Assembly: GCA_963704305.1 (NCBI GenBank)
Contig: OY969888.1
Coordinates: 859,168-923,167, forward strand
Direction: 5' to 3'
DNA: 64,000 nt
DNA from: an uncultured Bacteroidota bacterium
Lineage (GTDB): Bacteria; Bacteroidota; Ignavibacteria; Kryptoniales; JAKASW01
A model generated the notes under the pieces. The model saw nothing but the letters and a program-made list of their open reading frames with translations, was not told the origin of the DNA and did no database searches. Within the stretch, counting starts at the first letter, position 1; every line of letters begins with the position of its first letter. Of this stretch, positions 32,081-54,959 are shown piece after piece. The translations under genes were made by a program, and so were the position numbers.

Positions 32081-33075
32081 TTTTCAGTCGGCACGTATGA
32101 CATGGTCTTATTCTTCACCTGCTTTGCAACCCAGGAATAAGTAATAGTTAACCCATCAGTCAATTTCATAGATGGCGACCAACCCAGCTTATCCCTAATT
32201 AACCTGTTGTCTGAATTCCTGCCTCTAACACCTAGAGGTCCGGCGACATGATTTATTAATAACTTTTTCCCCGCGATGTTTATCACGATTTCAGCAAGTT
32301 GATCAATAGTTACCATTTCCTCCGAGCCGATGTTGACGGGCCCGATGAAATCCGATTCCATAAGCCGCCTGATCGCTTCCAGGCATTCGTTAACATACAA
32401 GAAAGAGCGTGTTTGTTTTCCGTCGCCCCATATTTCTATTTCTCCGCCGTCCTGCGCCTCTGCGACCTTTCTGCAAACTGCAGCAGGCGCTTTCTCTCGC
32501 CCGCCGACCCATGTCCCTTCCGGTCCAAATATATTATGAAACCTTGCTATCCGGACATTAAGTCCGTAGTTCCTGTGAAACGCCAAGTAAACATGCTCGC
32601 TGAACAATTTTTCCCAACCATATTCACTGTCTGGAGCAGCGGGGTACGCTGAATCTTCAGAGCACTTTGGGTTGTCGGGATCTTCCTGGTTATAGGCAGG
32701 GTACATGCAAGCAGAAGATGAGTAGAAGATCTTCTTCACCTTCACTCTGTTTGCTGCTTCAGCCATGTTTAAATTGATCATCGCAGAATTATGTATAATG
32801 TCGGCGTCGTTCTCCCCTGTGAAGACGAATCCTGCGCCGCCCATATCGGCTGCAAGCTGGTACACCTCATCAAAAGGCTGGTCAGTGATATTACGACAAA
32901 CAACTGGGTCCCTCAGATCTCCGATCACAAAATCATCTGCAACCGTGTTTGAAAACTCTGGATACTTGAGGTCGAGCCCTCTGACCCAGAAGCCTTGACC
33001 TTTTAATTTTTTTACTAAGTGGCTTCCAATGAAACCGCCGGCGCCGCATACTAGTGCCGTTTCCTTTATTGACAT
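32077..33075 (-). CDS. SDR-family NAD-dependent epimerase (GDP-mannose 3,5-epimerase-like)
   Basis: 'ALVCGAGGFIGSHLVKKLKGQGFWVRGLD', 'YGWEKLFSE' (YxxxK) and 'DFVIGDLRD'. Confidence 0.8.
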   Translation of the reverse strand: MSIKETALVCGAGGFIGSHLVKKLKGQGFWVRGLDLKYPEFSNTVADDFVIGDLRDPVVCRNITDQPFDEVYQLAADMGGAGFVFTGENDADIIHNSAMINLNMAEAANRVKVKKIFYSSSACMYPAYNQEDPDNPKCSEDSAYPAAPDSEYGWEKLFSEHVYLAFHRNYGLNVRIARFHNIFGPEGTWVGGREKAPAAVCRKVAEAQDGGEIEIWGDGKQTRSFLYVNECLEAIRRLMESDFIGPVNIGSEEMVTIDQLAEIVINIAGKKLLINHVAGPLGVRGRNSDNRLIRDKLGWSPSMKLTDGLTITYSWVAKQVKNKTMSYVPTEK

Positions 33076-33100
33076 AAGTTACTCCTGAGTGTTTGTATTA

Positions 33101-33220
33101 AGTTAGTGATCGGTGAGGATAGCTCTTAGCTGATAGCTCATGGCTGATAGAAACAGTGAACAGTAATCAGTGATCTGTGATCGGTGAACAGTGAAGGGTG
33201 ATCTGTGATCTGTGACTGGA
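33101..33220. repeat. Heptanucleotide-periodic repeat tract (AGCTSAT units then CNGTGAW units)
   Basis: 33121-33148 reads AGCTCTT AGCTGAT AGCTCAT GGCTGAT. 33154-33216 reads CAGTGAA CAGTAAT CAGTGAT CTGTGAT CGGTGAA CAGTGAA GGGTGAT CTGTGAT CTGTGAC. Confidence 0.85.
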
Positions 33221-33222
33221 GT

Positions 33223-33708
33223 TCACTTTCTTTTGTTTTGCACCTTCGTCAGAAATTCCAGGTCATCAATGTCTTTGTGCCTTCCGAGAGCTTTCTTGTT
33301 CTTAACCAATTCATCAAGCCCGATGTAATAGATCGGCACCTCCATGCCCTGAAATGAAAACCTCTCATCCACCCTGTTTTCCCAAGCCTCCTTGAATCTG
33401 ACACCTTCAATTTCATTTATCAAATCTATCCTGTTGGGAGGCACGCCAAATTGAAAAATCATGCCGTCCTGCATCAGTTCGTCCTTGTTAGCCATACCTG
33501 GTATATCGTTCAGCCAAAACTGACTCAGAGCAGCATATAGCCGACTAACGTTTTCCTCAGACCCTTCATAAAAAATGTCAATATCTCCGGTCAATCTTGC
33601 GTGCCCGTAGTAGATGACAGCCTCACCTCCGACGATCACGTACCGCACTTCGCGGCTTGACAAAACCGAAAGGAACTCGGACACATCTTCGGAAAAAGGA
33701 ACTTTCAC
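33223..33708 (-). CDS. Small nucleotidyltransferase-fold protein (DUF6036-like; putative toxin/antitoxin-type module component)
   Basis: 'VRYVIVGGEAVIYYGHARLTGDIDIFY' is the G-x-..-D-x-D minimal NTase signature. 161 aa. Confidence 0.65.
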   Translation of the reverse strand: MKVPFSEDVSEFLSVLSSREVRYVIVGGEAVIYYGHARLTGDIDIFYEGSEENVSRLYAALSQFWLNDIPGMANKDELMQDGMIFQFGVPPNRIDLINEIEGVRFKEAWENRVDERFSFQGMEVPIYYIGLDELVKNKKALGRHKDIDDLEFLTKVQNKRK

Positions 33709-33896
33709 TTGTCCAACCGGAGTCGCTTACCGAATGCCCTGCTCTCGCGAACATCGGGATTATCGATCCCGAAGAAACGTTCCTTTAGGGCCTTGGCAAT
33801 TTCATGACGCTGGTCGCAGGTCATCTCTATCTGCTGCAGAAGATCCCAATCCTCCGCTTCCTTGTGCGTCCTGGCTTTGTTGACTATGCGGTCCAT
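33705..33896 (-). CDS. Small partner protein of the NTase-fold gene (63 aa)
   Basis: 4-nt overlap with the downstream NTase start (33705-33708). The charged helical sequence 'KEAEDWDLLQQIEMTCDQRHEIAKALKERFFG' is typical of small TA-type partners. Confidence 0.5.
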   Translation of the reverse strand: MDRIVNKARTHKEAEDWDLLQQIEMTCDQRHEIAKALKERFFGIDNPDVRESRAFGKRLRLDK

Positions 33897-33904
33897 CGTT
33901 GGGT

Positions 33905-34212
33905 TAGCTCGTAGCGGATAAAAGCAGTGAAAAGTGATTGATAATCAATGAACAATGATCAGTGATCAGTGAATGGTGATCGGTCCCGCCTTGCGGCATC
34001 CCGTAAATCCATTTTGAATAATGATGAACGGGATAAATAATTTTGACGGGATAATCAGTGAGCAGTATGAATAGCTTATAGCAACTTAGCTCATAGCTGA
34101 TAGGATGCAGGCTTGAAAGCCGGCAAGCGTGGATATCTGATGGCTCATGGCTCATAGCAAGGAGCAGTGTGCAATAATCAATGGACAGTTTGCGGTGAAT
34201 GGTGATATGAGC
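33905..34212. repeat. Heptanucleotide-periodic repeat tracts (GTGAW-type and AGCTSAT/GGCTCAT-type) around a short unique core
   Basis: For example CAGTGAA AAGTGAT TGATAAT CAATGAA CAATGAT CAGTGAT CAGTGAA TGGTGAT (33925-33980), AGCTCAT AGCTGAT (34089-34102) and TGGCTCA TGGCTCA (34141-34154). ORF 33904..34155 here is a repeat artefact. Confidence 0.8.
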
Positions 34213-34263
34213 AATTTTAGCGTGTCACCTAATTTGGCTGGAGCCACACATCCGCCTGCTTTC

Positions 34264-34632
34264 TTAAGGACGCCTTACTCCTGCTAGCATCATCCTCATC
34301 GGTTCGAGGGTTCTGCGAAACGGATCGAGCTTCAATCCAAGAATCTCAAGGGTAACCATACCGAGGAGCGATTCATCGCCTTCTTCACCGAGAATTACAG
34401 GAGTGTGCCCCTCTCCGCCAGCAATTCTAATAAAACACTCCGACACATTACGTTTGATCATAGAACCGTCCGCCAAGGTAAAATCCATCGTTCGCTCCGC
34501 AACCAGCCCCATGTTCTTCCAATGTTCCTGTGCAAGGAGTGAGTAGACAGCACCGCTGTCAACCAGAAACCGGACGGATCGTTCCACACCGTTGGGTCCT
34601 CTCACCATTCCATCGATAAAAGTCAATCCCAT
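34264..34632 (-). CDS. Retropepsin-like (clan AA) aspartic protease, stand-alone 122-aa form
   Basis: The 'FLVDSGAVYSLL' active-site D-S-G-A motif and the size match single-domain bacterial/archaeal retropepsin-like proteases. Confidence 0.75.
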   Translation of the reverse strand: MGLTFIDGMVRGPNGVERSVRFLVDSGAVYSLLAQEHWKNMGLVAERTMDFTLADGSMIKRNVSECFIRIAGGEGHTPVILGEEGDESLLGMVTLEILGLKLDPFRRTLEPMRMMLAGVRRP

Positions 34633-34775
34633 GACGCGTCCTCTCCTTCGTAAATCCTGACAGGGTCAAGCGCCTGCAATACCAAATGGACACGAGCTTC
34701 GCATTTGCGCCTCTGCTCCTGCCGGTAGATTTCGCTTCCTAACAATATACGTCGCACTCGTCTCAATTGGTAGAA

Positions 34776-34930
34776 CTGTAATCAGTGATTAGTAAAAGTG
34801 ATCTGTGAACAGTGAACGGTGATCGGCAAGCGGTGAGTAGTAAACAGTAAGCACTAGGCAGCAACCGGTAGACATTATGTTTTATCAAGTGTATTCCCTG
34901 CTGACAGCTCATTGCTAAAAGCTAATCGCC
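34776..34930. repeat. Heptanucleotide-periodic repeat tract
   Basis: CTGTAAT CAGTGAT TAGTAAA AGTGATC TGTGAAC AGTGAAC GGTGATC.., then AGCTCAT TGCTAAA AGCTAAT (34906-34926). Confidence 0.75.
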
Positions 34931-35105
34931 ATTCTTCCTACAGCTTCGCCATCTCACTCCCATTGCGCTTCGAAAAAGTGCTTTGCGCACATAGGAACTG
35001 TGCATCATAGAGCGAATACGCCTCTGGCTCGCGTAGTTAGAGAAATTTTTCTCCGCGAGCTTCACTATCCCGACAATTCGGGAGAGTGTGTCCCCCTCTC
35101 TATGA

Positions 35106-35723
35106 TTATGTTGCGGATGAAGTAAGGTTAACGGCAGTCATGCCTGAACGCGGTTTGCGCGCTGCCGTGCTGCGGCTAATTAGCCTTACTGCACCTGCTG
35201 GTACCTTTATACTAAGTAGTTTGTCCAGCCCATCGACACTGACAACGAAATTCTTGCCATTAACTAACTCGACAACCTTGCCACGCAATCCCATCAAGGG
35301 ACCGGCGACCACTTCTGCTTCGTAACCGGAATAATCACCCTCCAGCACATCGATATCATCAGAATGATACTCAATCAATCTCTTAACATCTTCAATTTGG
35401 TTATCAGGTACAATACTTGGCTTACCATTTGAGCTGACAAATTTTACAAAGCCATCTATTGTGTAAATACTCTGGAACTCGCTCTGCAAAGTTCTCGCAA
35501 AAACATAACATGAAAACAGCGGAGTCTCGATCCACTTTTTCCGATCGCTCCACTGTCTTATTTCTTTTCTCAGGGGAAGATAGGATTCGATACCGCGCTC
35601 GGTCAAATCCAGACAGACGCATTTCTCATGACGGGCTTTGACATAGATTACCCGCCAAACTTTCTTCTCAAAATCTTTAGGACCTTCAGCCCCCCCAGGC
35701 AAGGCGCATTGCAAGTCGTTCAA
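35106..35723 (-). CDS. UpxY-family (NusG-like) transcription antiterminator
   Basis: 'WRVIYVKARHEKCVCLDLTERGIESYLPLRKEIRQWSDRKKWIETPLFSCYVFAR' is an NGN domain. A C-terminal KOW-like 'GLRGKVVELVNGKNFVVSV' follows. It has a TTG start and the exact start is uncertain. Confidence 0.8.
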   Translation of the reverse strand: MNDLQCALPGGAEGPKDFEKKVWRVIYVKARHEKCVCLDLTERGIESYLPLRKEIRQWSDRKKWIETPLFSCYVFARTLQSEFQSIYTIDGFVKFVSSNGKPSIVPDNQIEDVKRLIEYHSDDIDVLEGDYSGYEAEVVAGPLMGLRGKVVELVNGKNFVVSVDGLDKLLSIKVPAGAVRLISRSTAARKPRSGMTAVNLTSSAT

Positions 35724-36154
35724 ACGATATCTCCACTTTAGGTCTACGGTAAAAAAGCGTCGTCACCATCTGCGTTCAACATACAAACAGATTTCTTACG
35801 ACAAAAGGTTCCGCGGACCGTTCCACATTTCATGAGACGATAAGACCTTATCATGGATCATGTTAGATCCCTTCTCGTCTCAAACAACAACGAAAGAATT
35901 GGTTCGGAGGAAATGGCTAGGTGCCAGTGCTCGAAATTAAGAAACTACTCCCGCTCATTAAACCGGGAATTTCCTCCTTCTGTTCGCCCTCTCGGAATAA
36001 AGTTAAGTCTGCCTAAGGAAGAAATCAAGCGTCTGAATTTAAAGTTATGTTAAGAATTTAGGATGTGACAATGTTCACACGCAGAATGCGGCGAAAAATG
36101 ATGGATTTGTATTGGGGCGATGGGGGAAAAGGGATCAGGGAGCAGTTAGGAGGA

Positions 36155-36812
36155 GATTTACAATTGACGATTGCCGATTGATGATTGAACGGTGAAGAGT
36201 GATTTGTGGGAAGGAGAGTTGGGAGGAGAGCTGGGAAGAGATTTGGGAAGAGATTTACGATTGTCAATTGCCGATTGACGAATGAACGGTGAGCAGTTGG
36301 AAGGAGAGTTGGGAGGAGAATTGGGAGGAGATTTACGATTGACAATTGCCAATTGACGAATGAACGGTGAGCAGTTGGAAGGAAAGTTGGGAGGAGAATT
36401 GGGAAGAGATTTACGATTGTCAATTGCCGATTGACGAATGAACGGTGAGCAGTTGGAAGGAAAGTTGTGAGGAGAATTGGGAAGAGATTTACGATTGACA
36501 ATTGAAGATTGACGAATGAACGGTGAGCAGTTGGAAGGAGAGTTGGGAGGAGAATTGGGAGGAGATTTACGATTGACAATTGCCGATTGACGAATGAACG
36601 GTGAGGGGTAGGAAGGAGAGTTGGGAGGAGAGTTGAGGAGAGATTTGCGATTTACAATTGCCAATTGATGATTGAACGTCGAGAGAGCAGTGAACGGTTG
36701 GGAAGAGATTTACGATTGAGGATTGCCAATTGACGAATAAACGGTGAGAGAGCAGTGAACGGTTGGGAAGAGATTTACGATTGACAATTGCCAATTGATG
36801 ATTGAACGATGC
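36155..36812. repeat. Tandem repeat array: 1x97, 5x78, 2x65 bp units plus a 41-bp partial unit
   Basis: The unit start GATTTAC recurs at 36155, 36252, 36330, 36408, 36486, 36564, 36642, 36707 and 36772. The unit is GATTTACGATTGACAATTGCCGATTGACGAATGAACGGTGAGCAGTTGGAAGGAGAGTTGGGAGGAGAATTGGGAGGA, itself built of heptamers. Confidence 0.9.
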
Positions 36813-36877
36813 CCTATGAAAAAGAAAATCCATTTACACGAATTTTCTTACAGACTCGTAAATATTGGAACGGACTC

Positions 36878-37228
36878 TCATCTCCTCTCAGCGGTTTTGT
36901 GTGAGGCCGTAAAAATGGCCAGGAGTTCTTTAGCTTCCGAGATAATTGGCTTTACGACTTGGTCGTTTGCGATTTCAGATTCTAAGATCAACTCGAGCCA
37001 ATAAATAGTCTCACTTGCCTCCTTCTGGACTATCCCGATCTTATGAACGAAGTCCGCCCTCGACTCTCCTCGGGATGCTTCACAATAGTTCGCCCCCACC
37101 GATGTCCCAGACTTCAAGACCTGGTACCCAAGGACATCGGAGACTTTACTCTTTGGAAGTGAGTTGACAAGCTTTATGACGTCAAGCGCGAACGCTTTCG
37201 TCCGCTTCTCCAAATCCTCTCTCTTCAT
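36878..37228 (-). CDS. Four-helix-bundle protein (TIGR02436 / '23S rRNA intervening sequence protein' family)
   Basis: 'LGYQVLKSGTSVGANYCEASRGESRADFVHKIGIVQKEASETIYWLELI' matches the family core (GxQLxRSxxSIGANxxEA .. KE..ET.YWL). Confidence 0.85.
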   Translation of the reverse strand: MKREDLEKRTKAFALDVIKLVNSLPKSKVSDVLGYQVLKSGTSVGANYCEASRGESRADFVHKIGIVQKEASETIYWLELILESEIANDQVVKPIISEAKELLAIFTASHKTAERR

Positions 37229-37235
37229 TAGTCAG

Positions 37236-37266
37236 ATCATCAATTGTCAATCGGCATTTACAAATC
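37236..37266. repeat. Inverted partial copy of the 36155-36812 repeat unit
   Basis: The reverse complement GATTTGTAAATGCCGATTGACAATTGATGAT shares GATTGACAATTG and ATTGATGAT with the terminal unit at 36772-36812. Confidence 0.5.
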
Positions 37267-37268
37267 CT

Positions 37269-38711
37269 TCATCGCCTCCCTATTCCATAATACTCAAAGC
37301 CGAGCTCTCTCACCTTTTCCGGATTGTAGATGTTGCGTCCGTCAAAGATCACATGCCCCCGCATTAACCTTTTCATCCTATCGTAATCCGGCTCTCTGAA
37401 TTCCTGCCACTCAGTTACCAGTATCAGCGCATCCGCATCTTTGAGTGCATCATACTGGTCTTTAACAAATCTCAACTTCCCTTCTGTGACTTTTCCCTTC
37501 ACGCCTTTTCCTTTCAGGTTTACCTTCCGCCCTGTCAGGCTCTCCTTCTTCTCCTCAAATAATCTTCTTGCGTTATCCATTGCCACGGGGTCAAATGCGG
37601 AAACCTCCGCACCATCCCTCAAAAGGCTGTCGATGACCACGAGCGAAGGCGCCTCACGAATATCGTCAGTCTTCGGCTTGAAGGAGAGGCCCCACAACGC
37701 AAATTTCCGCCCGGCGAGTTTGCCCGCGAAGTGTGCTCGAATCTTCTCGGGAAGGACGCCCTTTTGCCTTTCGTTAACCCTGTTCACCGCGCTGACAAGC
37801 GAAGTCTCCATCGAAACTTCCTCTCCCATCTTGATGAGTGCCTTAACGTCTTTCGGGAAACAACTTCCTCCCCAGCCGATTCCCGGGAAAAGGAATTTCT
37901 GTCCAATCCTGTTGTCGTAGCCCATCGCCATCCTTACCTTCTCGACATCCACGCCTAATTTTTCACAGAGAAGTGCAATCTCATTCATGAACGAAATTCT
38001 CGTCGCGAGGAAAGCGTTAGCCGCATACTTCACCATCTCGGCGTCCCGAGTTTGCATGAGAAGAATCCTGGGGACGGTTCTGACAAACGGCTGGTACAAC
38101 TCTTGAAGGATGTCCGCAGCTTCGTGATCTTCAATGCCGATAACGACCCTGTCGGGAAACAAGAATTCTTGAATAGCACTCCCCTCTTTCAGAAACTCCG
38201 GGTTTGATGCCACCTGGACTCTCGCTCGCGGATACTTCTTGAATATCTCCCTCAACTTGTCCCCGGTCCCCACAGGAACCGTACTCTTTGTCACGACTAA
38301 CTTATACACCTCCGCTTCGTTGCCACCCATCGCTTCACCGGGCCTCCGTGATTTCCGTTCCCCGCTTGAAGATCGGACATTTAATATCTGTCCTATCCTT
38401 TCCGCAGTTTCCATGACGTATCTCAAGTCCGCACTGCCGTCTGCACCCGGAGGCGTCGGCAGGCAGAGAAAGATCACCTTCGAACTTTCTACGGCATCCT
38501 GCAGAGAGGTAGTGAAGAATAACCGTTTTGCTCTTTGATTCTTCTCAATCAGTGCATCGAGCCCGGGCTCGTATATAGGAGATTTGCCTTTCTTAAGGAG
38601 CGAGATCTTTCTTGAATCGACATCCATGCAGACAACCTGATTGCCGGTTTCTGCGAAACATGTTCCGGTAACAAGACCTACATAGCCGGTTCCGATGACT
38701 GAGATGTTCAT
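37269..38711 (-). CDS. ugd: UDP-glucose 6-dehydrogenase
   Basis: 'MNISVIGTGYVGLVTGTCFAETGNQVVCMDVD', 'GWGGSCFPKDV' and 'PEFLKEGSAI'. It is about 40 aa longer than usual because of two low-complexity insertions. Confidence 0.9.
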   Translation of the reverse strand: MNISVIGTGYVGLVTGTCFAETGNQVVCMDVDSRKISLLKKGKSPIYEPGLDALIEKNQRAKRLFFTTSLQDAVESSKVIFLCLPTPPGADGSADLRYVMETAERIGQILNVRSSSGERKSRRPGEAMGGNEAEVYKLVVTKSTVPVGTGDKLREIFKKYPRARVQVASNPEFLKEGSAIQEFLFPDRVVIGIEDHEAADILQELYQPFVRTVPRILLMQTRDAEMVKYAANAFLATRISFMNEIALLCEKLGVDVEKVRMAMGYDNRIGQKFLFPGIGWGGSCFPKDVKALIKMGEEVSMETSLVSAVNRVNERQKGVLPEKIRAHFAGKLAGRKFALWGLSFKPKTDDIREAPSLVVIDSLLRDGAEVSAFDPVAMDNARRLFEEKKESLTGRKVNLKGKGVKGKVTEGKLRFVKDQYDALKDADALILVTEWQEFREPDYDRMKRLMRGHVIFDGRNIYNPEKVRELGFEYYGIGRR

Positions 38712-38743
38712 TTGATTAATTTCCTATTTAAGTTGTGAGAGGA

Positions 38744-38852
38744 GCGGTGATCAGTGATTGGTGAACAGTGAACGGTGGTCGGCGAACTGCTCACAGTTCA
38801 AAGTTTACTGTTTACTCGTAACTATTCACAAATCACAGTTCACGCTTCACGA
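38744..38852. repeat. Heptanucleotide-periodic tract with dyad symmetry
   Basis: The left arm GGTGATC AGTGATT GGTGAAC AGTGAAC GGTGGTC switches at 38785 to the complementary orientation CTCACAG TTCAAAG TTTACTG TTTACTC .. TCACAGT TCACGCT TCAC. Confidence 0.75.
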
Positions 38853-38977
38853 CATACAACTAACTATTTCCTGCGGACTTTCCTTGAAGACTCAGGCAAT
38901 AAGATAACAATTCAACCTCGTGCGCACAAGACGGAGCATGGATCCGCTGCTACCGGGTGCCTCTTGCAAGAGCCCAT

Positions 38978-39010
38978 AACAACAAAAAGCCCCTCAGAAT
39001 CTCGAGGGGC
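38978..39010 (-). terminator. Rho-independent terminator after the 483-aa T9SS gene
   Basis: The minus strand reads GCCCCTC GAGATTCT GAGGGGC followed by TTTTTGTTGTT, about 30 nt after the stop at 39042. Confidence 0.7.
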
Positions 39011-39041
39011 CTTTGTGAACAATTATGTTCTTTGGAGTCTG

Positions 39042-40493
39042 TTACTTCAAAAGAAGCATCTTCTTCATCATTGTAAAGGTCCCGGCATCCATCCTGTAGA
39101 AGTACACGCCGCTCGTGACTTGTTGGCCCTGGTCATTCAGGCCATCCCATGTTACGGAGTAGCGTCCCGCTCCCATGTCACTATTGACAAGTGTGCGGAC
39201 TTCTTTTCCGAGAATGTCATAGACCGTGACCCTGACATTCGACATGTTCGGCAAATCGAACTTGATGCTGGTGGTCGGGTTGAACGGATTCGGGTAGTTC
39301 TGACCGAGCGAGTAATCCTTCGGGAGGCCAGGCAACTCCTGCACCTTCTGAACCTTGAAGACCCAGGTATTCGAAGCAGACAGGCCACCTTGATCGCTGA
39401 CGACGACCTTCACGGAATCTGTCTTTCCGGAATCCGAGAATGAGGTCGTGAACCAGTTGTCGGCGCCAGTCTTCTTCGTAGTGCCGTTGACACTCCAGGT
39501 GTATGTCAGCACGTCGCCGAGGTCCGGATCGCTCGCGGTCGCCGCGAAGGTCACCGAAGCGTTCAATTGAATCTTGCTCACCGAGGGCGTGAAGCTGGAG
39601 ATCTTGGGCGGGTGGTTGACTTTTGTACTTGTCAACGATCCGTTCGTCACCCCAACACTCGGAGTGCCTTCGTTGTACTCGAAGCCGGACAAAGTCAGTG
39701 ATGTCTTTCCTGCACCGACTACTACTCCTGTTACGTATACTAAGACGCCTTTTCCTGAGAGAGTTGCTGCTCCAGCGGCGGCTATTGATACCGTACCAGG
39801 ATTAGACATGCCGGCAGTGATTGTCATCGAAGAGGGCGAAATCGTTCCAGTTGTGGAATATCCCAGACCGGTGATTTGGACGACGCTCGTATCGTACGCC
39901 AAATTGAACTGATACGAATAGACATTCTGTCCAGTCAAAGTGCTGTCAGCGTTTATGGGTATCAAGACTACTTGACCAACCGTGTCAGTGAGTGCAGGTA
40001 CAGACACGCTCACTGCGGCAGTTCCGACAGATCCATTCGTAAGGTTGGCAGTCGGTGTACCCTCGTTGAACATGAAGGATTGAAACGTCAAAGCAGTTGT
40101 ACCAGTACTCAATATCGTCGCATCCAAGTTAATCAGCGTTCCAACGCCGCCAAGGTATCCTGAACCCGCTGCAGCTACGCTGATTTTGCCACCGACAGTG
40201 TCCACGACTGGCTGAACCGAAATGGCCGACGATAGAGTCCCTGATATATCTGCCCCCGTTATCTTTATCATGTGAGGGTTGTAGGTTACAACGAACTGAT
40301 ACGATCGAACGCCCTGGCCATCCAGGTTGCTGACTGTAATCGGCATGGCAACGGCTGCACCTACTGTTCCTGTCACGTTTGGCAGGCTTACGCTCACCTG
40401 CGCAATACTCAAACTGCTCTGTAGTATGAGCATAGCGAAGGCGAGACCGAATATCCTTGTCACATCTCTACTAAATTTTAACATTTGACTCAC
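39042..40493 (-). CDS. T9SS-sorted surface protein with two cohesin-like modules and a PKD-like domain
   Basis: It has a signal peptide. Two modules follow: 'VSLPNVTGTVGAAVAMPITVSNLDGQGVRSYQFVVTYNPHMIKI..TFQSFMFNEGTP' and 'VSVPALTDTVGQVVLIPINADS..YSYQFNLAYDTSVVQI..LSGFEYNEGTP'. Then comes 'SDPDLGDVLTYTWSVNG' (PKD-like) and the CTD 'NYPNPFNPTTSIKF..GVYFYRMDAGTFTMMKKMLLLK'. Confidence 0.8.
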   Translation of the reverse strand: MSQMLKFSRDVTRIFGLAFAMLILQSSLSIAQVSVSLPNVTGTVGAAVAMPITVSNLDGQGVRSYQFVVTYNPHMIKITGADISGTLSSAISVQPVVDTVGGKISVAAAGSGYLGGVGTLINLDATILSTGTTALTFQSFMFNEGTPTANLTNGSVGTAAVSVSVPALTDTVGQVVLIPINADSTLTGQNVYSYQFNLAYDTSVVQITGLGYSTTGTISPSSMTITAGMSNPGTVSIAAAGAATLSGKGVLVYVTGVVVGAGKTSLTLSGFEYNEGTPSVGVTNGSLTSTKVNHPPKISSFTPSVSKIQLNASVTFAATASDPDLGDVLTYTWSVNGTTKKTGADNWFTTSFSDSGKTDSVKVVVSDQGGLSASNTWVFKVQKVQELPGLPKDYSLGQNYPNPFNPTTSIKFDLPNMSNVRVTVYDILGKEVRTLVNSDMGAGRYSVTWDGLNDQGQQVTSGVYFYRMDAGTFTMMKKMLLLK

Positions 40494-40510
40494 CTTTCTT
40501 TTTTATGGTT

Positions 40511-40536
40511 CCCGACCCGGCAGCTGCCGGGTCGGG
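40511..40536. other. Perfect 26-nt palindrome between the two T9SS genes
   Basis: CCCGACCCGGCAG/CTGCCGGGTCGGG, with no T-tract on the transcribed (minus) strand. The next gene's RBS and ATG follow within 20 nt. Confidence 0.6.
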
Positions 40537-40550
40537 ATCGCTTAGCTCTC

Positions 40551-43500
40551 TTACTTGAGGAGCAGCATCTTCTTGAATGAAACAAATGAACCTGCCTCTA
40601 AGCGGAAGAAGTACACTCCGCTGGAGACCTGCTCACCTGCATTGTTCAATCCGTTCCACTGGATCGTGTAGTAGCCGGCATTCTGGTTGTCGTTCACCAG
40701 AGTTCTGACAAGCTGACCAGTGACATTGTAAATCTTCAACGTCACGTTGGCCGGCTTTGCGAGCTGGTACTTGATCATCGTGGTCGGGTTGAACGGATTC
40801 GGATAATTCTGATCGAGGCCAAACTTCGAAGGAACTGCAGCGACTTCGAAGGAAGCAAGTGATTGCGCCTCATTTTCATTAATTACTGTACTGCCGGTCA
40901 GGTTCGCTTTCGCTGACTGGCTGGCAAGCTTGAATTGAATCGTCGCAACGTTGCCCGAAGACAGAGGAGTTGTGCCTGCCATGGCTATCTTCAGCACGCC
41001 TTGGCTGACGTGGTACGCGAACAGCCAATCCTTAGGCAGACTGCTGGTCACGCCTTCCACAGTGGCACCCTGTCCAACGTTCAGGCTCATCGAAACTGCG
41101 TTGACATTTCGAGCATCGCTTATTGCAACCGGCACGTTCACGAGGTTCTCTTCAGAACCGGATTGGCCTCCACTGAGAGCCATTGTACCGGACGAAGGCA
41201 GCACCGAAACTGCAAAGCGCTCGCCCTTCAATGTAGCTGACGCAAAGTGGACGCTAGTGTCGCCGGCTGCCTTACGCAGTATCCATGATGCGTCAAGTGC
41301 CGTGACAGAACCGTTTCCAGTCACGTCAGCAGCGGTGAGTGCACTGGAAGACAGGACCGTGTCGCCAACAACGTAATCCAGAACTAGAGCTGCGTCAAAA
41401 GCAGTGACCGTTCCATTACCGCTAACATCACCTTTTGCAACAACCGGGCCATTGCGTATCACGATAGCCTTGCTCTGACCATACAAGCTAGTGCTCGTAC
41501 CGTTGAACACATAGATGTAGAGAGGGTTCGTTGCGGCAGTCAAGGTACCAGTAAAGGTCGTGGCACCCGTTATGACCTTCGGGTTCGAGCCGATGTTGAA
41601 GCCACCCGTCTGGTTCGAGGAGACGTTGATAATGTTCTGCTCAGTTGAATTGAGGTTCCAATATTTGTCACGCGGAGAAACCGTGAACGTGAACGTATCA
41701 TTGGGTCCTAGAGTATCTTTTGATACTGTAGCGCCCCAGAATCCTACGCCGGTGCCACTAGCTGACAGCGGGAGCCACTTCAATGAGTATGTCGATGTGG
41801 CCGTGAAACCACCGCCAGTAAGCGTCACGGTATTCGCGCTATCGACCCAGAACTTGTGCAGATAGAACACAGCCTGACCTTGCACAAATACAGTGTCGGT
41901 AAGGCTTGCACCGGAGCTTCTCTTTACAAACTTGCCGTTCTTATCGCTGTAAGAGAAGTAGAAGGTAGAATCCTTCGTCGCATTTACTGCAAGGTTCGTG
42001 TGGTTTACCGTTAGGGTCTGACCGGCAAGAGAATACGTATAGATGCGATGGGTCAACGAATCCTGTGCTGTAAACACAAGCTTCACGCTATCGCCTGCAT
42101 TCCCCTTCCAACCGGTGCCACCGTATCCAGAGGCTGCCGTGTCAAAGACTGCAGTAAAGGCTTTCAAGATACCTGTAGGTATCGACCTTATGGTTGCCGT
42201 GTCGTTGGTTGCTCCGGTAAGGTTGACATAAATCTTCTGCGTGTCAGCGCCAGCCGTATATGAGGTAAACGGAACCTGCGCATCAAGTGAACCACCCACG
42301 CTCGCAAGCGCGCTGCTACCAGTGCTTGTATACGTGTGCGTCACAAAGCCACCGCGATTGTGGCCTGATGAGACGGTATCAGCCGTCAAAGCAGATAGCT
42401 GACTTCTTATGTCTGGGTTCAATTTACTGGTGTCAAGTTTAGCGCTTGTATAATAAGCCGTCTTGTAAGCGCTTACGGTCAAGTTTCCAGCGACACCCCA
42501 GTCGATGTGGTTGCTGTATTGATCTTGCTTGTCGACAGTAAAGGTCTCTTTCTGTCCGGCAATTGCAAGCGTATCAGAGTGCGGCGTGATGACCAGCTTT
42601 GCAAGGGTAGTAGGTGTAACCCAAATAGGCGCAGACTTTGCAACCGACGCGCTCGTCGCGGCAACAGTCTTCAAAGTATCCATGCCAGCTGTCTTGTACG
42701 AGGCAATGCTAACAGTGGTGACTAAACCGGCATTCGGATAGAGAGTGTCTGCCGATGTCGTATCTGCCGTGCGCAAGAACTTCACCTTCCCTAATGTCGA
42801 AAGGAGCATTCCATACGATGATTTAGTCGGAGCAATCGTTGCGCCCGATGAAGTTGGAGCCGTCACTATGTTTCCGTATCCATCCCATACTGAATCCTGG
42901 AATGCAAGGGCATTAACATAATTCGAGGCCACAACCGAGCTGTCTGTACCTGTCGACTGGAACAACTTCAACGTCGCAGGAACATTGCTTCGGGCTTGAA
43001 TGGTCAGCGTATTAGTATAAGAACCCATGGTTGCGAGAACGCTGTCCTTAGAACTCGTTCTGTCGAGCGCACCGGCAACACCGGTGTACACGTTAGTGGA
43101 CACAGTATATGGAATCGCAATACCGACCGCTGTCTTGCTCGTGTTCGGGTACTGATTTTCCGTGATCGAGCTCGTAAGTGCTGGTGTTCCAAGAGCAGTA
43201 TTCTTGCCATTCTTTCCACTTATCGTGAAGGTCACCTGGGTCGCGCTCGACGCACTTATTGGATTCCCGTAAGAATCGCGGAGGAACGCACGTGCGTAAA
43301 CCTGAACTCCGGCGCCAATAGCTTCTGAAAGTTGGGATCCGCTGGCTGAGGACGCATAGTCAAGGATCAAACCGCCGATTGCACCCGGATTGATCAGGAT
43401 CGACCTGCTTTGCAATACATTGCTTGCGCTATCAGCGAATTGTAAGATATCAGTGCCTACATAATATTTGTTCGGGGTAAACGTAACCGCAATTTGACCG

Positions 43501-44690
43501 TTCCCGTCCGTGGTGAATGGCCCATTAAACGCACCGTTGTGATTCGTCTTCTCCGACAAAGCGACGCTGGCACCGAGTACTGGATTGAAGAACTGGTCGG
43601 TGACTGTCCCGGTGTATTGCGTTGTTTGATCAACCGTCAACGTATCAGACTTCCCGCTGACCAGCGCCACCGAGATATTTTTCATGGTGCCTGGAACAAA
43701 CGTCATGACGGCATTATTTCTCACAGTGTCTTTGCTGCTAAGGGTGAACTTGAGAGTGATCTTTTCCGCCTTCGTATACGTCAGGCTACCAAAGTCGACA
43801 GCTATGTTATGACCGTACCAGACGACCGTGGACGTGTTGCCCACCGTACCGCTACCTGCGGCATTGGTGTTGCTGAGTACCGCCGTTACAGTTGGTACAG
43901 TCGAGTTGTACGGCGTGTAATTACCAACAGCGTCCTTAAAATAGACCTTGATACCATTCGCGGTATCCACGGACGCAGAGCCAAGAGTTCCAGCCGAGCT
44001 AATGTATTTTCCCGCTGTTTGGGCTGCATCAGGTTGATTGGTGATTGTCATCTGAGTTACCGGTCCGGGAAGAGGAATGATTGCGCTCCCAGCAATGTTT
44101 AACCCGGCACTCATAGTATCGACTACCACATTTATTGCCGCGGTGGTTGAGTCAAACTTTGCTGCCGTCACTTTCGACTGCAAATACAGCCCTGTCACAA
44201 CAATCGTATCATGAGCTGTGGAAGCTGTCGCAACTCTGACCGCAAGATAATACACATGATTAGTTGCACCATATATTGGCTTCACCCTCACGCTGGTGAG
44301 CGAAGTTTGAGTTTGGCCATACGCTGCGAAGAAGCCAGTGGTGTCGAACTTTATCCCCGTAGTTCCAATTTGTCGCGCAGTAAGCGTGACCACGGAGTCC
44401 TTAACAAACTGCACATTAGCCGGCGGCATGATCTGAAGAGTATCCTGGGTGTTCTTGTCGCCTCCCTGGATATCCCCTGCTGCCGTCTCGAGCAGCTTAA
44501 GATTCTTGATCAGGTATTTGGCGGAGTCGCCATTCGTAGTCATGGTATGATTCAACGGAACATATGTCGTATCATACACGACCGTCACCTGTGCTTGCGC
44601 GGTTGACATGCCGAATCCCCCGACGAGCAATATACTCATCAGAAGAGGAAGCCAGCCGTGCCTCAGAAAACCGAAACGTTTTTCTAGCAT
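40551..44690 (-). CDS. Giant (1379 aa) T9SS-sorted surface protein with Ig-like repeats, a dockerin-like module and a cohesin-like module
   Basis: Signal peptide. It has about 1050 aa of T/S/V-rich beta repeats. The dockerin-like duplicated Ca-loop reads 'GDVSGNGTVTAFDAALVLDYV..ADVTGNGSVTALDASWILRKAAGD' (about 41259-41432). A cohesin-like 'LVNVPVAISDARNVNAVSMSLNV..GNVATIQFKL' follows, then the CTD 'NYPNPFNPTTMIKY..KKMLLLK'. GGAGG lies 6 nt upstream of the ATG. Confidence 0.85.
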   Translation of the reverse strand: MLEKRFGFLRHGWLPLLMSILLVGGFGMSTAQAQVTVVYDTTYVPLNHTMTTNGDSAKYLIKNLKLLETAAGDIQGGDKNTQDTLQIMPPANVQFVKDSVVTLTARQIGTTGIKFDTTGFFAAYGQTQTSLTSVRVKPIYGATNHVYYLAVRVATASTAHDTIVVTGLYLQSKVTAAKFDSTTAAINVVVDTMSAGLNIAGSAIIPLPGPVTQMTITNQPDAAQTAGKYISSAGTLGSASVDTANGIKVYFKDAVGNYTPYNSTVPTVTAVLSNTNAAGSGTVGNTSTVVWYGHNIAVDFGSLTYTKAEKITLKFTLSSKDTVRNNAVMTFVPGTMKNISVALVSGKSDTLTVDQTTQYTGTVTDQFFNPVLGASVALSEKTNHNGAFNGPFTTDGNGQIAVTFTPNKYYVGTDILQFADSASNVLQSRSILINPGAIGGLILDYASSASGSQLSEAIGAGVQVYARAFLRDSYGNPISASSATQVTFTISGKNGKNTALGTPALTSSITENQYPNTSKTAVGIAIPYTVSTNVYTGVAGALDRTSSKDSVLATMGSYTNTLTIQARSNVPATLKLFQSTGTDSSVVASNYVNALAFQDSVWDGYGNIVTAPTSSGATIAPTKSSYGMLLSTLGKVKFLRTADTTSADTLYPNAGLVTTVSIASYKTAGMDTLKTVAATSASVAKSAPIWVTPTTLAKLVITPHSDTLAIAGQKETFTVDKQDQYSNHIDWGVAGNLTVSAYKTAYYTSAKLDTSKLNPDIRSQLSALTADTVSSGHNRGGFVTHTYTSTGSSALASVGGSLDAQVPFTSYTAGADTQKIYVNLTGATNDTATIRSIPTGILKAFTAVFDTAASGYGGTGWKGNAGDSVKLVFTAQDSLTHRIYTYSLAGQTLTVNHTNLAVNATKDSTFYFSYSDKNGKFVKRSSGASLTDTVFVQGQAVFYLHKFWVDSANTVTLTGGGFTATSTYSLKWLPLSASGTGVGFWGATVSKDTLGPNDTFTFTVSPRDKYWNLNSTEQNIINVSSNQTGGFNIGSNPKVITGATTFTGTLTAATNPLYIYVFNGTSTSLYGQSKAIVIRNGPVVAKGDVSGNGTVTAFDAALVLDYVVGDTVLSSSALTAADVTGNGSVTALDASWILRKAAGDTSVHFASATLKGERFAVSVLPSSGTMALSGGQSGSEENLVNVPVAISDARNVNAVSMSLNVGQGATVEGVTSSLPKDWLFAYHVSQGVLKIAMAGTTPLSSGNVATIQFKLASQSAKANLTGSTVINENEAQSLASFEVAAVPSKFGLDQNYPNPFNPTTMIKYQLAKPANVTLKIYNVTGQLVRTLVNDNQNAGYYTIQWNGLNNAGEQVSSGVYFFRLEAGSFVSFKKMLLLK

Positions 44691-46436
44691 TGTACCTCCA
44701 TTGTGTTTACTTTTCTTTCAAATGATAATGCAAACAAACGGGAGAAGTCAAAGAGAATCGCATTACCCTCGCTTGCCCGTCCTCTATGTTTACTAGCATT
44801 TCTTTTGCTTCCGAAACAAAACTCGCCGTAACCAAATATCATCTTACTCCAAACGAAGATTTCTCTATGTCAAAAGCGCACATTAATTCAAACACGCTCC
44901 GCAATCCTGACAACAATACCGGCACAAGTGCTTCACCACTTGCTCAAGTTGTCGAGCACAACATTCAGTATTTTCATTACCTATCGACGTGGAAATATTA
45001 ATCAGTGTGGCGCACATAGTCAAGAGCATTTTGAACTTTTTTTTGATTTTTTCGCGTGCCTGTCTGCGGTGACGACATACGTCTATTTCGGATATATTGA
45101 CAGAAAACTTTAACATATGAAACGCCATAGTGCAAGCGTCGCCAGAGGTGATGTGACAGTGCGCACAGAGGGGAATTTCGGCGGGCTATCCATTGTTCAA
45201 GAGGCGGTGCGGGAAACGGGACCGACCGACAACGTCCTTCGAAGGCAGCTAAGCAAGAATACTTTGTGGCGCAGCCGTCGCGGTGCGCGGCTGGCAATGA
45301 TGTTCAGCCGGTACCGTTCATCCGCGCGGCGGCATTCGGGTTGTAACCACGCCACGTCGGAAATCTCCTGACGGCCGAGATCAATGAAATCAGATACATG
45401 GACGGAACTCGCAGGACGATGCGGGTCGCCCTTCGACGAATGAATCCTTCATTGGCAAATCATGTTCTCAAAGCGAGGTATGACAGGAGACAGTTGCGCT
45501 CGCATCCGCACAAGATGGTACAGCAAGATCCCACGTCCCGCACTGTACCATGATACCAAAGCCAGGAAGTTGAACAGCATCTCACATAGCATTCCCGTTA
45601 ATCATGAGAAGTTGCACGCAGAAGCTCGCGCCGCGAAAATGAATCCTTATTCTTACTACGGAAATCTCTGAGCCCCAACTCTTGAAATACGGAGAGGTCG
45701 TTATGATGAGAATTAATTGGCGTCTAATTGTAGCGCCATTCATTCCGACTTCGTTCAATCAGAATTGAACGCGGGTTCTTATACCAAAGTTAGCTTTTAG
45801 CCCAACATGCGTCGGGGCATACTCGTTGCAGAAGAAAAGAGGACAACTGAGGGATAGGGGAATTCCGTCGCCGTTGCGTCCCGCCGTGCAGTTACTTGAC
45901 ATGGGGAGATGCCCACTGTTTACACAGGGAGACAATCGGAATACTAAGGAAGGAAGCTAAGGCTTGATATTCAATAATCTGGCAGTGACTCACTTTTAAT
46001 TCTAATGTCGGTACATTAAGAAGGTCTTGCTTTCTTTAATGTGTTAGAACCGTAACTTACGGTTGAAAGATGAACATCATTGAAAAAGGGAGACCTTATG
46101 ATGAAAGATAGCAAAAGAGAGTGGTACAAGAACTATGTGGCGATCGATTGGTCACAAGAGGTGGTGTTTGTACGAAGGATGATGACACAGGCGGGACGAG
46201 TGGAAAAATCTGTATGGACTACCGCTCAACCATCATTTGACGAAACTCATAGAAGATTTCTCCTCTCAAGGATCGTCTCCGCCAGAGGCTGATGCGCCTG
46301 TGGCGCAGAAATGACATTCTCTTTGTTTTCATGCAGCCTCATAAAAAAGAGGGTGAAGATTCACGAATGCTATTCCGGTGGACTGTACCCCCTCTTGATG
46401 GGACCGTTCCAAAATGGACATTCCGGCGAAACTTGT

Positions 46437-46519
46437 CCCAGCATGATCTTAGCTGGGAGCCGGAATCCAGTTTTTGGTTCTGCATGCAAGCTGGAGTCTA
46501 CCCCGTGCTTGACACGGGG
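46437..46519. repeat. REP-like pair of short GC-rich hairpins just downstream of wzc
   Basis: TCCCAGC-N9-GCTGGGA (46437-46459) and CCCCGTG-N5-CACGGGG (46501-46519). Translated frames give the '..AGIQ..' and '..LDTG..AGMT..' strings typical of palindromic extragenic elements. There is a single copy in the window. Confidence 0.3.
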
Positions 46520-46590
46520 CTGGCATGACAAGCGTCATTTTATGTGAATGCTGAAACTGAGTCACTACCAAAAATCTACTGGCCGCGTAC

Positions 46591-52858: not shown

Positions 52859-53333
52859 TATTATTTATGATTGTATTTGGTGGGATAACGACCGTCTTCG
52901 GTTCACCAACGCCGTGGGAGTACCCATAAGCTCCAACCACTTTCCAATCTGCAAAAATGTTTGCGCCATACCGCAATGCGACCGCGACATACTGAAAAGT
53001 GGAGGAAGAATCAAGACTGAAACTATACGCCAGCGAGTTAACGAAGAGCGGCCACGGGTTCGCGCTAATTGCCGGATAAACTCTCGCGCTGCCCGACTCG
53101 ACTTCGCCGATGATGTTCGTCGGAGGATAGTCATAGAAGGCTACCACCCGAATATCATAGACGCTATCCTGGGGCGGCCAGGTCGATACGAATTTTATCG
53201 TACCTCCGAAGCCAGGCTGAACCGGGAGAGGTGCAAGGCCGTGGTTGCAACCGGATAAGAAAATCAATAGCGAAAAAGCGCCAATTAGAATCTCCAATTT
53301 GCGATTTTCAATCGTCGATTGGAATACTTTCAT
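52791..53333 (-). CDS. Hypothetical lipoprotein
   Basis: The preferred start is 'MKVFQSTIENRKLEILIGAFSLLIFLSGC' (lipobox LSGC). The ORF track's longer start at 53489 adds a non-signal extension. Confidence 0.6.
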   Translation of the reverse strand: MKVFQSTIENRKLEILIGAFSLLIFLSGCNHGLAPLPVQPGFGGTIKFVSTWPPQDSVYDIRVVAFYDYPPTNIIGEVESGSARVYPAISANPWPLFVNSLAYSFSLDSSSTFQYVAVALRYGANIFADWKVVGAYGYSHGVGEPKTVVIPPNTIINNIDIEVDFKNIPPTPLSASVVSK

Positions 53334-53543
53334 TTCCTGCTGCCTCTTGAAGCGCCCTCTGCTATGTTCGATGAGGTGGAGACCGATGCTTGCCGGACTT
53401 GGTTCGCCATTCGTACAACTCTTCTTTCGGAAATGATGTGGTGAGTTCATAAACACTCTTGACCAGCTCAATCCCTCGTTTCCACACATCCAGATCTTTA
53501 TGACTATTCAGCTTTTCCATCTTTGCCGATCACCCATAACCGA

Positions 53544-54959
53544 TTATTTCCTAATTCCGAACAGCGTCCACGGATAAGAGAGCATGTCGTGCAAATATCT
53601 TCCCTGCCACTTGAAATTAGGATGTGCCTGAAAAAATTTCGACGCGATGAAACTCTCGCCGCACGGGTGTCCCATGTGCACCCAGAATTCCATCCTGCCA
53701 GCCAGGTCACCAGTTGTCACCTTGCCCTGCACTGCTCCAGCAGGAGTGTACGGAGCCCAACCCCATTGCGGAATCCCGCGCAGGTCCTCGTCGACGTGGC
53801 CGCACAGAACGCAGGCACCAACCGATTCCTTGCCGCGAACCTGATCAAAGTGGTCGCTCATGAATTGCTCCGCGAGTTCAGCATTAATTCTTCCCTTGTA
53901 TTGCTGCATCAACTTTTCCCAGCGGGACTTTCGATCGTTCATGGAACTGTAAATGTTACTGACCTTAAAAGTGGTTTCCTCCTCGATCGTCTTTTTGTCG
54001 CTCGGGAAGTTCGAGCCGACGTAACAGCCGTCTTTCGTCCGCCACACTCTATGATTCTTCAAACCGAGTTCGAGACGCGCAATCTCGTTCGTCCTGGTGT
54101 CTCCGATAAGCCAATCGTTCGCATAGCCGCCGTTATTTCCAGTTGTCATGATCCTGATAAAATCATCGATGCTGTTGGAATACTGTTCCGCCTCTCTCGC
54201 ACGCATGAACTCCGGTATTCCGTCTTCATCGAACCCTTTGAATTGTGCTATCGTCGTTTCCGTGATCAGGATGCCGGCGCTGTTCTCTACGAAATCATCT
54301 CCGCTGTGAATGAAGCCGGGGAAAGTGTCCATTAATATCCGGTTCCCTTTTTCCGGAACGATGTCCTCTATGACATTCCACCTTTCTCCGATAATGTAGT
54401 CGACCCAGGAATTATGTGCCATCACGATCTTCCCATCGGAGGTGTAACTTCCCGTCGCGATGAACGCGCTGCAATTCCCCGGTGCGCGATTATCACCTGC
54501 ACCTTTCCTCATTCTCTCGGCAAGCGCCGGCAAATAGTATTGTGCGAGCTCCATCCATCCGTTCAGCGCGGTGATATCGATCTTATCGTACATCTTTCCT
54601 CGTGCTCGCAAGCCCTCAGCAATTCCCTCAATCTCATTCCTGTATTCGTCACTCAGCTTGGGCCAGAACATTCTCTCGGCTGCGTCCCTGTAGAACTTCC
54701 AATCTCTGTGAGTCGTCCGTCCAAGGTAGAACTTCATCATCTTGATGGCATCGTCGATCTCAGGGGCAAGCAAATAGCCGTGCTGGTATCCTATCTCATT
54801 CGGTGAGCCCTCCACATGAATGTAAATCCATCCCGACCTGTCCTCACGGGAAGCTTTGGCGAGTCTCGGGTCTGTACCACCATATGCCGCCGCGAATAGA
54901 AGCAGGTAAAGAGTGAACAGTGAACAGTAGAATGTATGTTTAGATTTCATAATTCTCAT
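53544..54959 (-). CDS. Secreted Ntn-hydrolase, phospholipase-B-like / C45-like family
   Basis: Signal peptide, then 'GNCSAFIATGSYTSDGKIVMAHNSW' (nucleophile Cys context) and 'FPGFIHSGDDFVENSAGILITETT'. Confidence 0.65.
   Translation of the reverse strand: MRIMKSKHTFYCSLFTLYLLLFAAAYGGTDPRLAKASREDRSGWIYIHVEGSPNEIGYQHGYLLAPEIDDAIKMMKFYLGRTTHRDWKFYRDAAERMFWPKLSDEYRNEIEGIAEGLRARGKMYDKIDITALNGWMELAQYYLPALAERMRKGAGDNRAPGNCSAFIATGSYTSDGKIVMAHNSWVDYIIGERWNVIEDIVPEKGNRILMDTFPGFIHSGDDFVENSAGILITETTIAQFKGFDEDGIPEFMRAREAEQYSNSIDDFIRIMTTGNNGGYANDWLIGDTRTNEIARLELGLKNHRVWRTKDGCYVGSNFPSDKKTIEEETTFKVSNIYSSMNDRKSRWEKLMQQYKGRINAELAEQFMSDHFDQVRGKESVGACVLCGHVDEDLRGIPQWGWAPYTPAGAVQGKVTTGDLAGRMEFWVHMGHPCGESFIASKFFQAHPNFKWQGRYLHDMLSYPWTLFGIRK

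Follow-up and report, generated by a model that had tools for sequence, protein, structure and literature searches.

A lineage-specific, non-coding minisatellite of 660 bp beside an IVP gene that may derive from an inverted arm of the gene's own cassette

In the 64-kb window analyzed here (the whole stretch of DNA under study, 64,000 nucleotides), a tandem array lies within a run of genes that, as judged by their Pfam matches, are all encoded on the minus strand. In order of transcription these are a gene for a Wzc-type kinase, the genes of two T9SS dockerin/cohesin proteins, ugd, a gene of the 23S_rRNA_IVP family (the IVP gene), the array itself, a NusG/UpxY-like gene, and then accessory and polysaccharide genes, the small accessory genes coming first and a long row of polysaccharide genes following them (Table 1). 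The order of ugd, four-helix-bundle gene, array and UpxY-like gene given in the original prediction is confirmed by these matches. Orthologues of the UpxY-like gene were found in 22 of 24 congeners, and in most congeners the gene lies immediately next to the Tyr-rich tail of the Wzc-type gene. Here, the two are separated by approximately 10.9 kb (35723-46591) that hold the two T9SS proteins, ugd, the IVP gene and the array. Given the arrangement in the congeners, this block ending in ugd, IVP gene and array is peculiar to the present genome, and its position between the Wzc-type and UpxY-like genes means that the ancestral coupling of the antiterminator gene has been lost.

The end of the array and the start codon of the UpxY-like gene are 430 bp apart. 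Scans for sigma-70-type and Bacteroidota-type (TTTG...TAnnTTTG) promoters located none for the UpxY-like gene, with nothing usable near the array and no enrichment, and the TAnnTTTG box is absent from both strands between 34457 and 45784. The stretch from the IVP gene to the UpxY-like gene yielded no intrinsic terminator, and no Rfam family, rRNA included, was matched within 32500-40000 at E <= 1. An alignment of the congeners showed no conserved leader upstream of their UpxY-like genes, because the gene abuts the Wzc-type gene there. Two side observations concern the wider window. At ~53300-53499 (G000:C1:912467-912666), two adjacent sub-threshold PF05635 fragments, one of them with an internal stop, are what is left of a decayed second IVP gene. 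Furthermore, tracts of an NNGTGAN heptamer family (AGTGAAC, AACAGTG, CGGTGAT) at 33119-33215, 34797-34822, 38745-38782 and 54912-54928, all in one orientation, mark several gene junctions; a motif of the same family (CAGTGAAC) is also present in the 65-bp units of the array.

Table 1. Features of the array locus and its neighborhood, in window coordinates.
Feature	Position	Strand	Evidence and remarks
Wzc-type kinase gene	46591-48996	-	Pfam
ugd, UDP-glucose 6-dehydrogenase; upstream host gene	37269-38711	-	PF03721, PF00984, PF03720; 3' end is part of the 5' arm
Single 5' arm with the last ~17 ugd codons and stop	37232-37320	-	Core 37236-37266; mirrored by every array unit
Four-helix-bundle gene, 23S_rRNA_IVP family, 116 aa; cassette cargo	36878-37228	-	PF05635, 65.9 bits (cut-off 33.8 bits), E 4e-18
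Solo terminal remnant of an IS256/Mutator-type IS	36796-36860	+	Terminal repeat about 36830-36855; between IVP stop codon and array
Whole array, nine units	36155-36812		TRF, unit table, composition; purine/G-rich on plus strand, C-rich and G-poor on the transcribed minus strand
Unit 9, partial, 41 bp; proximal 3' arm of the cassette	36772-36812		Inverted match to 5' arm 31 nt, 77 %; duplex -41.0 kcal/mol, z -3.7
Units 7-8, two 65-bp units	36642-36771		Non-heptamer half (…CGGTGAGAGAGCAGTGAACGG…) complementary to ugd codons 37304-37318
Units 2-6, five 78-bp units	36252-36641		Each 6 x 7 bp + 3 x 12 bp
Unit 1, 97 bp; farthest from the IVP gene	36155-36251		Six heptamers + ~4.6 dodecamers
NusG/UpxY-like gene, first downstream of the array; head of ~35-kb polysaccharide row	35106-35723	-	Pfam NusG, 61.6 bits

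Cut at the boundaries of the original prediction, the array consists of nine units of 97 bp, 78 bp (five units), 65 bp (two units) and 41 bp. TRF reported a period of 78 over 36217-36678 (5.9 copies, 91 % matches, score 749) and a period of 65 over 36632-36808 (2.7 copies, 85 % matches); nested inside these are periods of 7 (GATTGAC), present in every unit, and 12 (AGTTGGGAGGAG). The predicted 78-bp and 65-bp units, with spacings of 97, five times 78 and twice 65, are therefore borne out by TRF and the unit table. The heptamer GATTTAC, which had been said to open the units, stands at the listed places except at 36642, where the sequence reads GATTTGC and an exact GATTTAC begins at 36649. Nine of the 17 GATTTAC sites of the window are inside the array, the expectation for the whole window being 7.8 +/- 2.6. 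Each 78-bp unit is composed of six heptamers (GATTTAC GATTGAC AATTGCC GATTGAC GAATGAA CGGTGAG) and, in its purine-rich half, three dodecamers (CAGTTGGAAGGA GAGTTGGGAGGA GAATTGGGAGGA). Identity among the 78-bp units is 88-96 %, in agreement with the figure of about 90 percent estimated beforehand, and there are long exact direct repeats, of 78 bp at an offset of 234 (three units apart) and of 63 bp at an offset of 156 (two units apart). With head-to-tail copies of a unit longer than ~10 bp (TRF, 78 x 5.9 and 65 x 2.7), the array is a minisatellite. A CRISPR array was considered and rejected, as it is the entire unit that recurs, with no unique spacers in between; a reading as a riboswitch or attenuator was rejected as well. 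GGAGG is indeed abundant on the plus strand (seven occurrences, vs none on the minus strand). These motifs belong to the strand that is not transcribed and mirror the final ugd codons; they are not ribosome-binding sites.

That mirroring is part of a larger inverted arrangement around the IVP gene. A single 5' arm of the IVP cassette lies at 37236-37285 and overlaps the ugd stop; on the transcribed strand it reads GGATTTGTAAATGCCGATTGACAATTGATGAT, starting at the ugd stop codon and ending 8 nt before the IVP start codon. Its complement is found in every unit of the array, as inverted matches of 31-46 nt at 72-81 %. RNA duplexes predicted between the 5' arm and each of the nine units extend over ~50 nt, with energies of -37 to -46.5 kcal/mol and z values of -2.4 to -4.5 relative to dinucleotide shuffles. 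The Smith-Waterman arm score at the array locus is 31, and the maximum in 120 control genes is 25. The locus shows the features of an IVS-like IVP cassette: a PF05635 cargo, flanking inverted repeats above the control level, and arms with a period of ~7 bp. In their other, purine-rich half the units match the final codons of ugd (GAATAGGGAGGCGATGAAG vs GAATTGGGAGGAGATTTAC), with 51 of 61 aligned columns identical (84 %). When the arm was held fixed and the non-arm half shuffled, 9/1000 and 16/1000 shuffles reached the score of this match, which is thus only moderately significant (p about 0.01). With the arm complement in every unit and the purine-rich half matching ugd codons, the unit is best regarded as the sequence 'ugd tail + 5' arm' copied in inverted orientation. 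The original prediction had placed the array between the ugd/IVP unit and the promoter region of the UpxY-like gene. The position stands; the array is not an independent spacer, however, and appears instead as the multiplied downstream arm of the IVP inverted repeat.

Such inverted, periodic arms are typical of IVP genes in general. Seven of the 12 IVP loci in this genome are flanked by arms that score at least 30 in a Smith-Waterman comparison, vs none of 120 size-matched control genes (Mann-Whitney p 2.5e-7). The heptamer differs at each of these IVP loci (GAGAAAT, AGAAGCC, AGGCACA and AAAAGTC are examples), so that arms match within loci and not between them. In a metagenomic sample of 80 IVP loci at 40-61 % identity, 68 had enough flank to be scored, and a score of at least 30 was reached in 54. 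The usual arm length at the metagenomic loci is 30-80 bp, and the largest arm-side arrays among these 80 other loci measure 173 bp (TRF; about 220 bp by eye) and 114 bp; the 660-bp array of 78-bp units is an extreme outlier among IVP arms. The 173-bp array, made of pyrimidine-rich heptamers of the CCTTTTA/CCTCTTA type, is on the 3' side at the closest metagenomic homologue (L057, 2505-2900, 61 % identity), and the 114-bp array is on the 5' side of its gene (L086). Judging from the long L057 array, one-sided growth of an arm may be recurrent in this IVP sub-lineage. Across 53 IVP loci, arm mismatches showed no excess of G.U-compatible over C.A pairs (55 vs 49), and so give no positive evidence for arms selected as sense-RNA stems; DNA may be the level at which the arms act, or at which they simply arise. 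The polarity of the arms is likewise inconsistent between loci, with G>C in 18 of the 5' arms and C>G in 34, and a consistently purine-rich 5' arm was not seen.

The array is lineage-specific. Its unit is single-copy in the closed 4.53-Mb genome, the only other match being a short inverted piece at 37209-37253 of the window, and a search of 24 congeners and 16 further relatives (same order or class) did not find the array; the sole match was to the IS-end piece situated between the array and the IVP stop codon. In the closest congener (G011, L013:95-225), an ATTGAC/ATTTAC tract follows right after the ugd stop, oriented as the 5' arm is here, and this heptamer tract stands there without an IVP gene and without an inverted partner. 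The match is weak; it agrees with an old insertion site whose fate later diverged, and the tract may be a leftover arm. The IS-end piece, ~60 bp long, recurs once in this genome (G000:C1:1158570-1158628) and in four congeners. In L008 the IS-end sequence is one of two 26-nt terminal inverted repeats (1504-1529 and 2871-2896) enclosing a 1.39-kb element with a gene for a Mutator/IS256-type transposase (PF00872), and from this match the piece in the window is identified as a solo IS end. The IS256-type transposase was looked for in the present genome and, with the query used, not found. The inner edge of the remnant shares GATTGAACG with the array units, which would fit loss of the IS body via recombination at short homology.

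Period-7 repeats are strongly over-represented in this genome in general: TRF listed 546 rows of period 7, vs 170-240 for periods 6, 8 and 9. The period-7 repeats are also enriched in intergenic DNA, which holds 37 % of them. The 21-mer GATTTACGATTGNCAATTGCC, taken from the heptamer half, is matched exactly in ten genomes (L032-L041), against an expectation of approximately one by chance. These genomes belong to Acidobacteriota, Planctomycetota, Cyanobacteria, Bacteroidota and Patescibacteria; the matches are mostly in intergenic heptamer tracts, several of which form long hairpins with a nearby complement. They were rejected as homologous arrays and are regarded as generic heptamer tracts. 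Some further observations on repeats of this genome were made in passing. An inverted partner within 1.5 kb was seen for 38 of 243 period-7 arrays of at least 20 bp, forming either short hairpins (gap < 200 bp) or arms that enclose IVP-sized ORFs (gap 380-490 bp). Other long arrays have periods of 21 or 42 nt, multiples of 7 (G000:C1:774119-774424, 1184155-1184435 and 2869405-2869664), for example (AACTCCA TTCCGTC GCATTGC)n. An ORF of 102-174 aa overlaps every one of them, two of these ORFs running against their neighbors and looking like repeat read-throughs, and the strand bias of the arrays relative to neighboring genes is opposite to that of the 660-bp array (G-rich on the sense strand). 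Two more regions (G000:C1:211162-212003 and 526369-527700) hold 97-98 % identical tandem arrays with periods of 115, 131 and 321 bp; these have a tRNA-gene-like consensus and are possibly tRNA gene arrays.

Taken together, we consider it fairly probable that the array is a lineage-specific non-coding minisatellite that arose by tandem amplification of the 3' arm of an IVP cassette behind ugd. An IVP gene would have inserted directly behind ugd, bracketed by heptamer-periodic inverted arms, and the unit that was later multiplied would have joined a heptamer half mirroring the 5' arm to a purine-rich half mirroring the last ugd codons. With units built on a heptamer period and sharing long exact repeats, slippage in the heptamers and unequal homologous recombination on the exact repeats are the likely engine of growth; once two copies of 65-78 bp existed, exact repeats of 63-78 bp would have been ample for unequal recombination. 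Three consequences would be expected of an array with such an origin. The number of units should be unstable. The 5' arm, of which there is only one, may pair with any of the nine units, so that alternative long-range stems would enclose the IVP gene. Lastly, Rho loading on ~660 nt of C-rich, G-poor RNA would curtail read-through from ugd and the IVP gene into the UpxY-like gene.

The last of these consequences is suggested by the composition of the transcribed strand. The minus strand of the array contains A, C, G and T at.24,.36,.09 and.32, and the array is the top GC-skew region of the 4.5-Mb genome at 78, 300 and 600 nt, with a skew of 0.64 at 600 nt and 0.44 in the next best region. Folding of the minus-strand transcript, which had been proposed along with the array, gave a nearly unstructured array RNA (-0.078 kcal/mol per nt when folded alone, 22 % paired) and stems with the 5' arm. 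When transcripts were truncated after unit 9, the 5' arm paired with unit 9, and with more units the pairing shifted among them. The density of YC in the sense RNA of the array is 2.2 times the genome mean. This is a C>G, poorly structured, untranslated RNA of well over ~80 nt, as in rut-type regions, and the genome encodes Rho as well as RNase III. In composition the array RNA is Rho-loading-like, which makes a polar effect of Rho type on read-through plausible; as for the original prediction's idea that unit number could modulate read-through or spacing, the evidence speaks neither for it nor against it. From the unstructured, C-rich, untranslated RNA, the lack of an intrinsic terminator and the presence of a rho gene, a Rho-dependent polar block would be the most concrete functional expectation, and the array probably acts at most as a transcriptional barrier before the polysaccharide operon. 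Since a C-rich 3' arm on the sense strand is not a feature of the family, and other long arrays of 7n period are G-rich on the sense strand, the Rho-like composition may be incidental.

A stronger claim can be built on the same observations, namely that the array has been retained as a Rho-dependent insulator that stops transcripts coming from the 10.9-kb block, the UpxY-led operon being served by a promoter of its own. The extreme C>G skew, the high YC density of an unstructured and untranslated RNA, the lack of an intrinsic terminator nearby in a genome that encodes Rho, and the status of the block as an insertion relative to the congeners are all consistent with it. The evidence is all compositional, however, and the skew would be automatic from multiplying one strand-asymmetric arm. 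The 430 bp that separate array and UpxY-like gene yielded no promoter, and other long arrays of the genome are opposite in polarity. We regard retention as an insulator as possible but rather unlikely.

The array has also to be weighed as a selected, length-variable control element of the UpxY-led operon, that is, a contingency locus in which repeats in the leader pair with the 5' arm, RNase III cuts the stem, and the number of units sets expression. There is a precedent in hmw1A (PMC12721329), and the geometry here is analogous, with pyrimidine-rich repeats facing a single G-rich partner to which they can bind; the genome encodes RNase III, the array is upstream of a surface-polysaccharide operon, and its long exact repeats predict gain and loss of units. 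On the other hand, the array was not found in the 24 congeners searched and is thus not a conserved device, the family shows no G.U signature of selection at the RNA level, and like arms surround IVP genes in unrelated operons. Promoter scans placed no transcription start. Exact-protein look-ups of the IVP protein and of Ugd in public assemblies, and a metagenome scan with the unit junction, gave no match, and no copy-number variant was found. A contingency locus is accordingly an unlikely account of the array. A bolder variant would make the array a working length-variable RNA switch, in which the one purine-rich arm at the ugd stop chooses among nine interchangeable pyrimidine-rich partners, and the choice and the number of units together set RNase III processing and Rho loading between an acquired block of genes and the 35-kb polysaccharide operon driven by UpxY. 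As each unit mirrors the final codons of the host gene as well, the arms would be made by templated inverted copying of the insertion site. We hold this conjecture doubtful; if true, it would hint at the way in which IVP cassettes establish themselves.

Could the arms instead be sites of DNA recombination? In this reading they would serve to invert the IVP segment, with nine alternative inversions, much as the promoters ahead of upxY are inverted in Bacteroides fragilis. It is true that inverted repeats flank 0.4-1 kb just upstream of a UpxY-like gene and that they bear no strand-specific RNA signature. However, the segment contains no TAnnTTTG box, no recombinase gene was seen among the annotated neighbors in the window, the arms are only 72-81 % matched, and a like arm architecture is seen around IVP genes in operons unrelated to capsules. 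An inversion system is very improbable, and the analogy with invertible upxY promoters of Bacteroides was rejected on the absent box (34457-45784) and the lack of a recombinase among the neighbors.

Tandem repeats are prone to assembly error, and an over-expanded repeat has been considered for this reason. Against this, the genome is one closed 4.53-Mb contig, and the units are individually distinguishable: beyond the 88-96 % identity of the 78-bp units, there are 13 variable columns, two size classes and distinct edge units, in an ordered mosaic. An assembly artefact is highly improbable, and the array is real.

It is also non-coding. Two ORFs stay open on the minus strand for more than 500 nt (36058-36579 and 36158-36664; 173 and 168 aa), and one match in Pfam, to DUF6688_C (28.2 bits over 29 residues), is just over the cut-off; that these ORFs encode real repetitive proteins can nevertheless be practically discounted. 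Variants among the units are 3 synonymous vs 13 non-synonymous in each open frame, both ORFs begin with TTG, their products are L/P/S/N-rich low-complexity sequences read from two overlapping frames of the repeat, and no homologous DNA was found in the 24 congeners. The frames are open because the strand is G-poor (11 stop triplets, vs 41 on the other strand). The DUF6688_C match is regarded as compositional, and the remaining Pfam matches are marginal and of low complexity. The original prediction had already taken the ORFs for artefacts, which the substitution pattern, the marginal Pfam matches and the lack of homologous congener DNA uphold. In annotation, these ORFs of 168-173 aa should not be called genes.

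Amplification of the 3' arm, the preferred reading, has implications beyond this locus. The periodic arms of an IVP cassette can grow out of bounds into a minisatellite of hundreds of bases, and an arm can mirror the coding end of its host gene. Both points bear on the origin of IVP cassettes and of bacterial heptamer repeats. Moreover, a C-rich untranslated tract of 660 nt directly ahead of an antiterminator gene offers a testable case of a selfish insertion reshaping the coupling of an operon.

Several known systems share features with this locus. As in rut regions, the RNA is C-rich, G-poor, unstructured and untranslated in a genome that encodes Rho, and termination is predicted. To our knowledge, rut sites are not normally tandem repeats of such length. 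Intervening sequences (IVS) of 23S rRNA that bear an ORF are reportedly found in Leptospira, where they are said to have been described by Ralph and McClelland in 1993. In Coxiella burnetii, the 23S IVS at helix 45 holds an S23p ORF in a 28-bp stem that is cut by RNase III, and heptameric repeats beside the ORF differ in number between strains (PMC4990558). Similarly, the present locus has a PF05635-family gene in the loop of an inverted-repeat stem, with heptamers adjoining the ORF. Unlike the Coxiella IVS, it lies between protein-coding genes (ugd and the NusG-like gene) and not in rRNA, one of its arms overlaps the ugd stop, and the other is multiplied nine-fold into a 660-bp higher-order array. 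A 23S rRNA intervening sequence proper was therefore rejected (no rRNA by Rfam in 32500-40000), and the element is best called IVS-like, with a putative excision by RNase III suggested by the predicted stems and the RNase III gene. In Haemophilus influenzae, the (ATCTTTC)n repeat in the 5'-UTR of hmw1A pairs with a G-rich arm, RNase III cuts the resulting hairpin, and expression falls as the number of repeats rises (PMC12721329). The likeness consists in a pyrimidine-rich, heptamer-based repeat with a G-rich partner upstream of a surface-structure gene, while the unit here is 78 bp long and the partner arm lies beyond an intervening gene. Finally, PMC4679880, citing Mrazek et al. (2007), describes heptamer tracts among the long simple-sequence repeats (LSSR) as prone to slippage. 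The array resembles such heptanucleotide LSSR and the cyanobacterial STRR in having intergenic tandem heptamers, which are attributed to polymerase slippage (PMC4679880), and differs from both in that its unit is a composite 78-mer (6 x 7 + 3 x 12) tied to an inverted partner.
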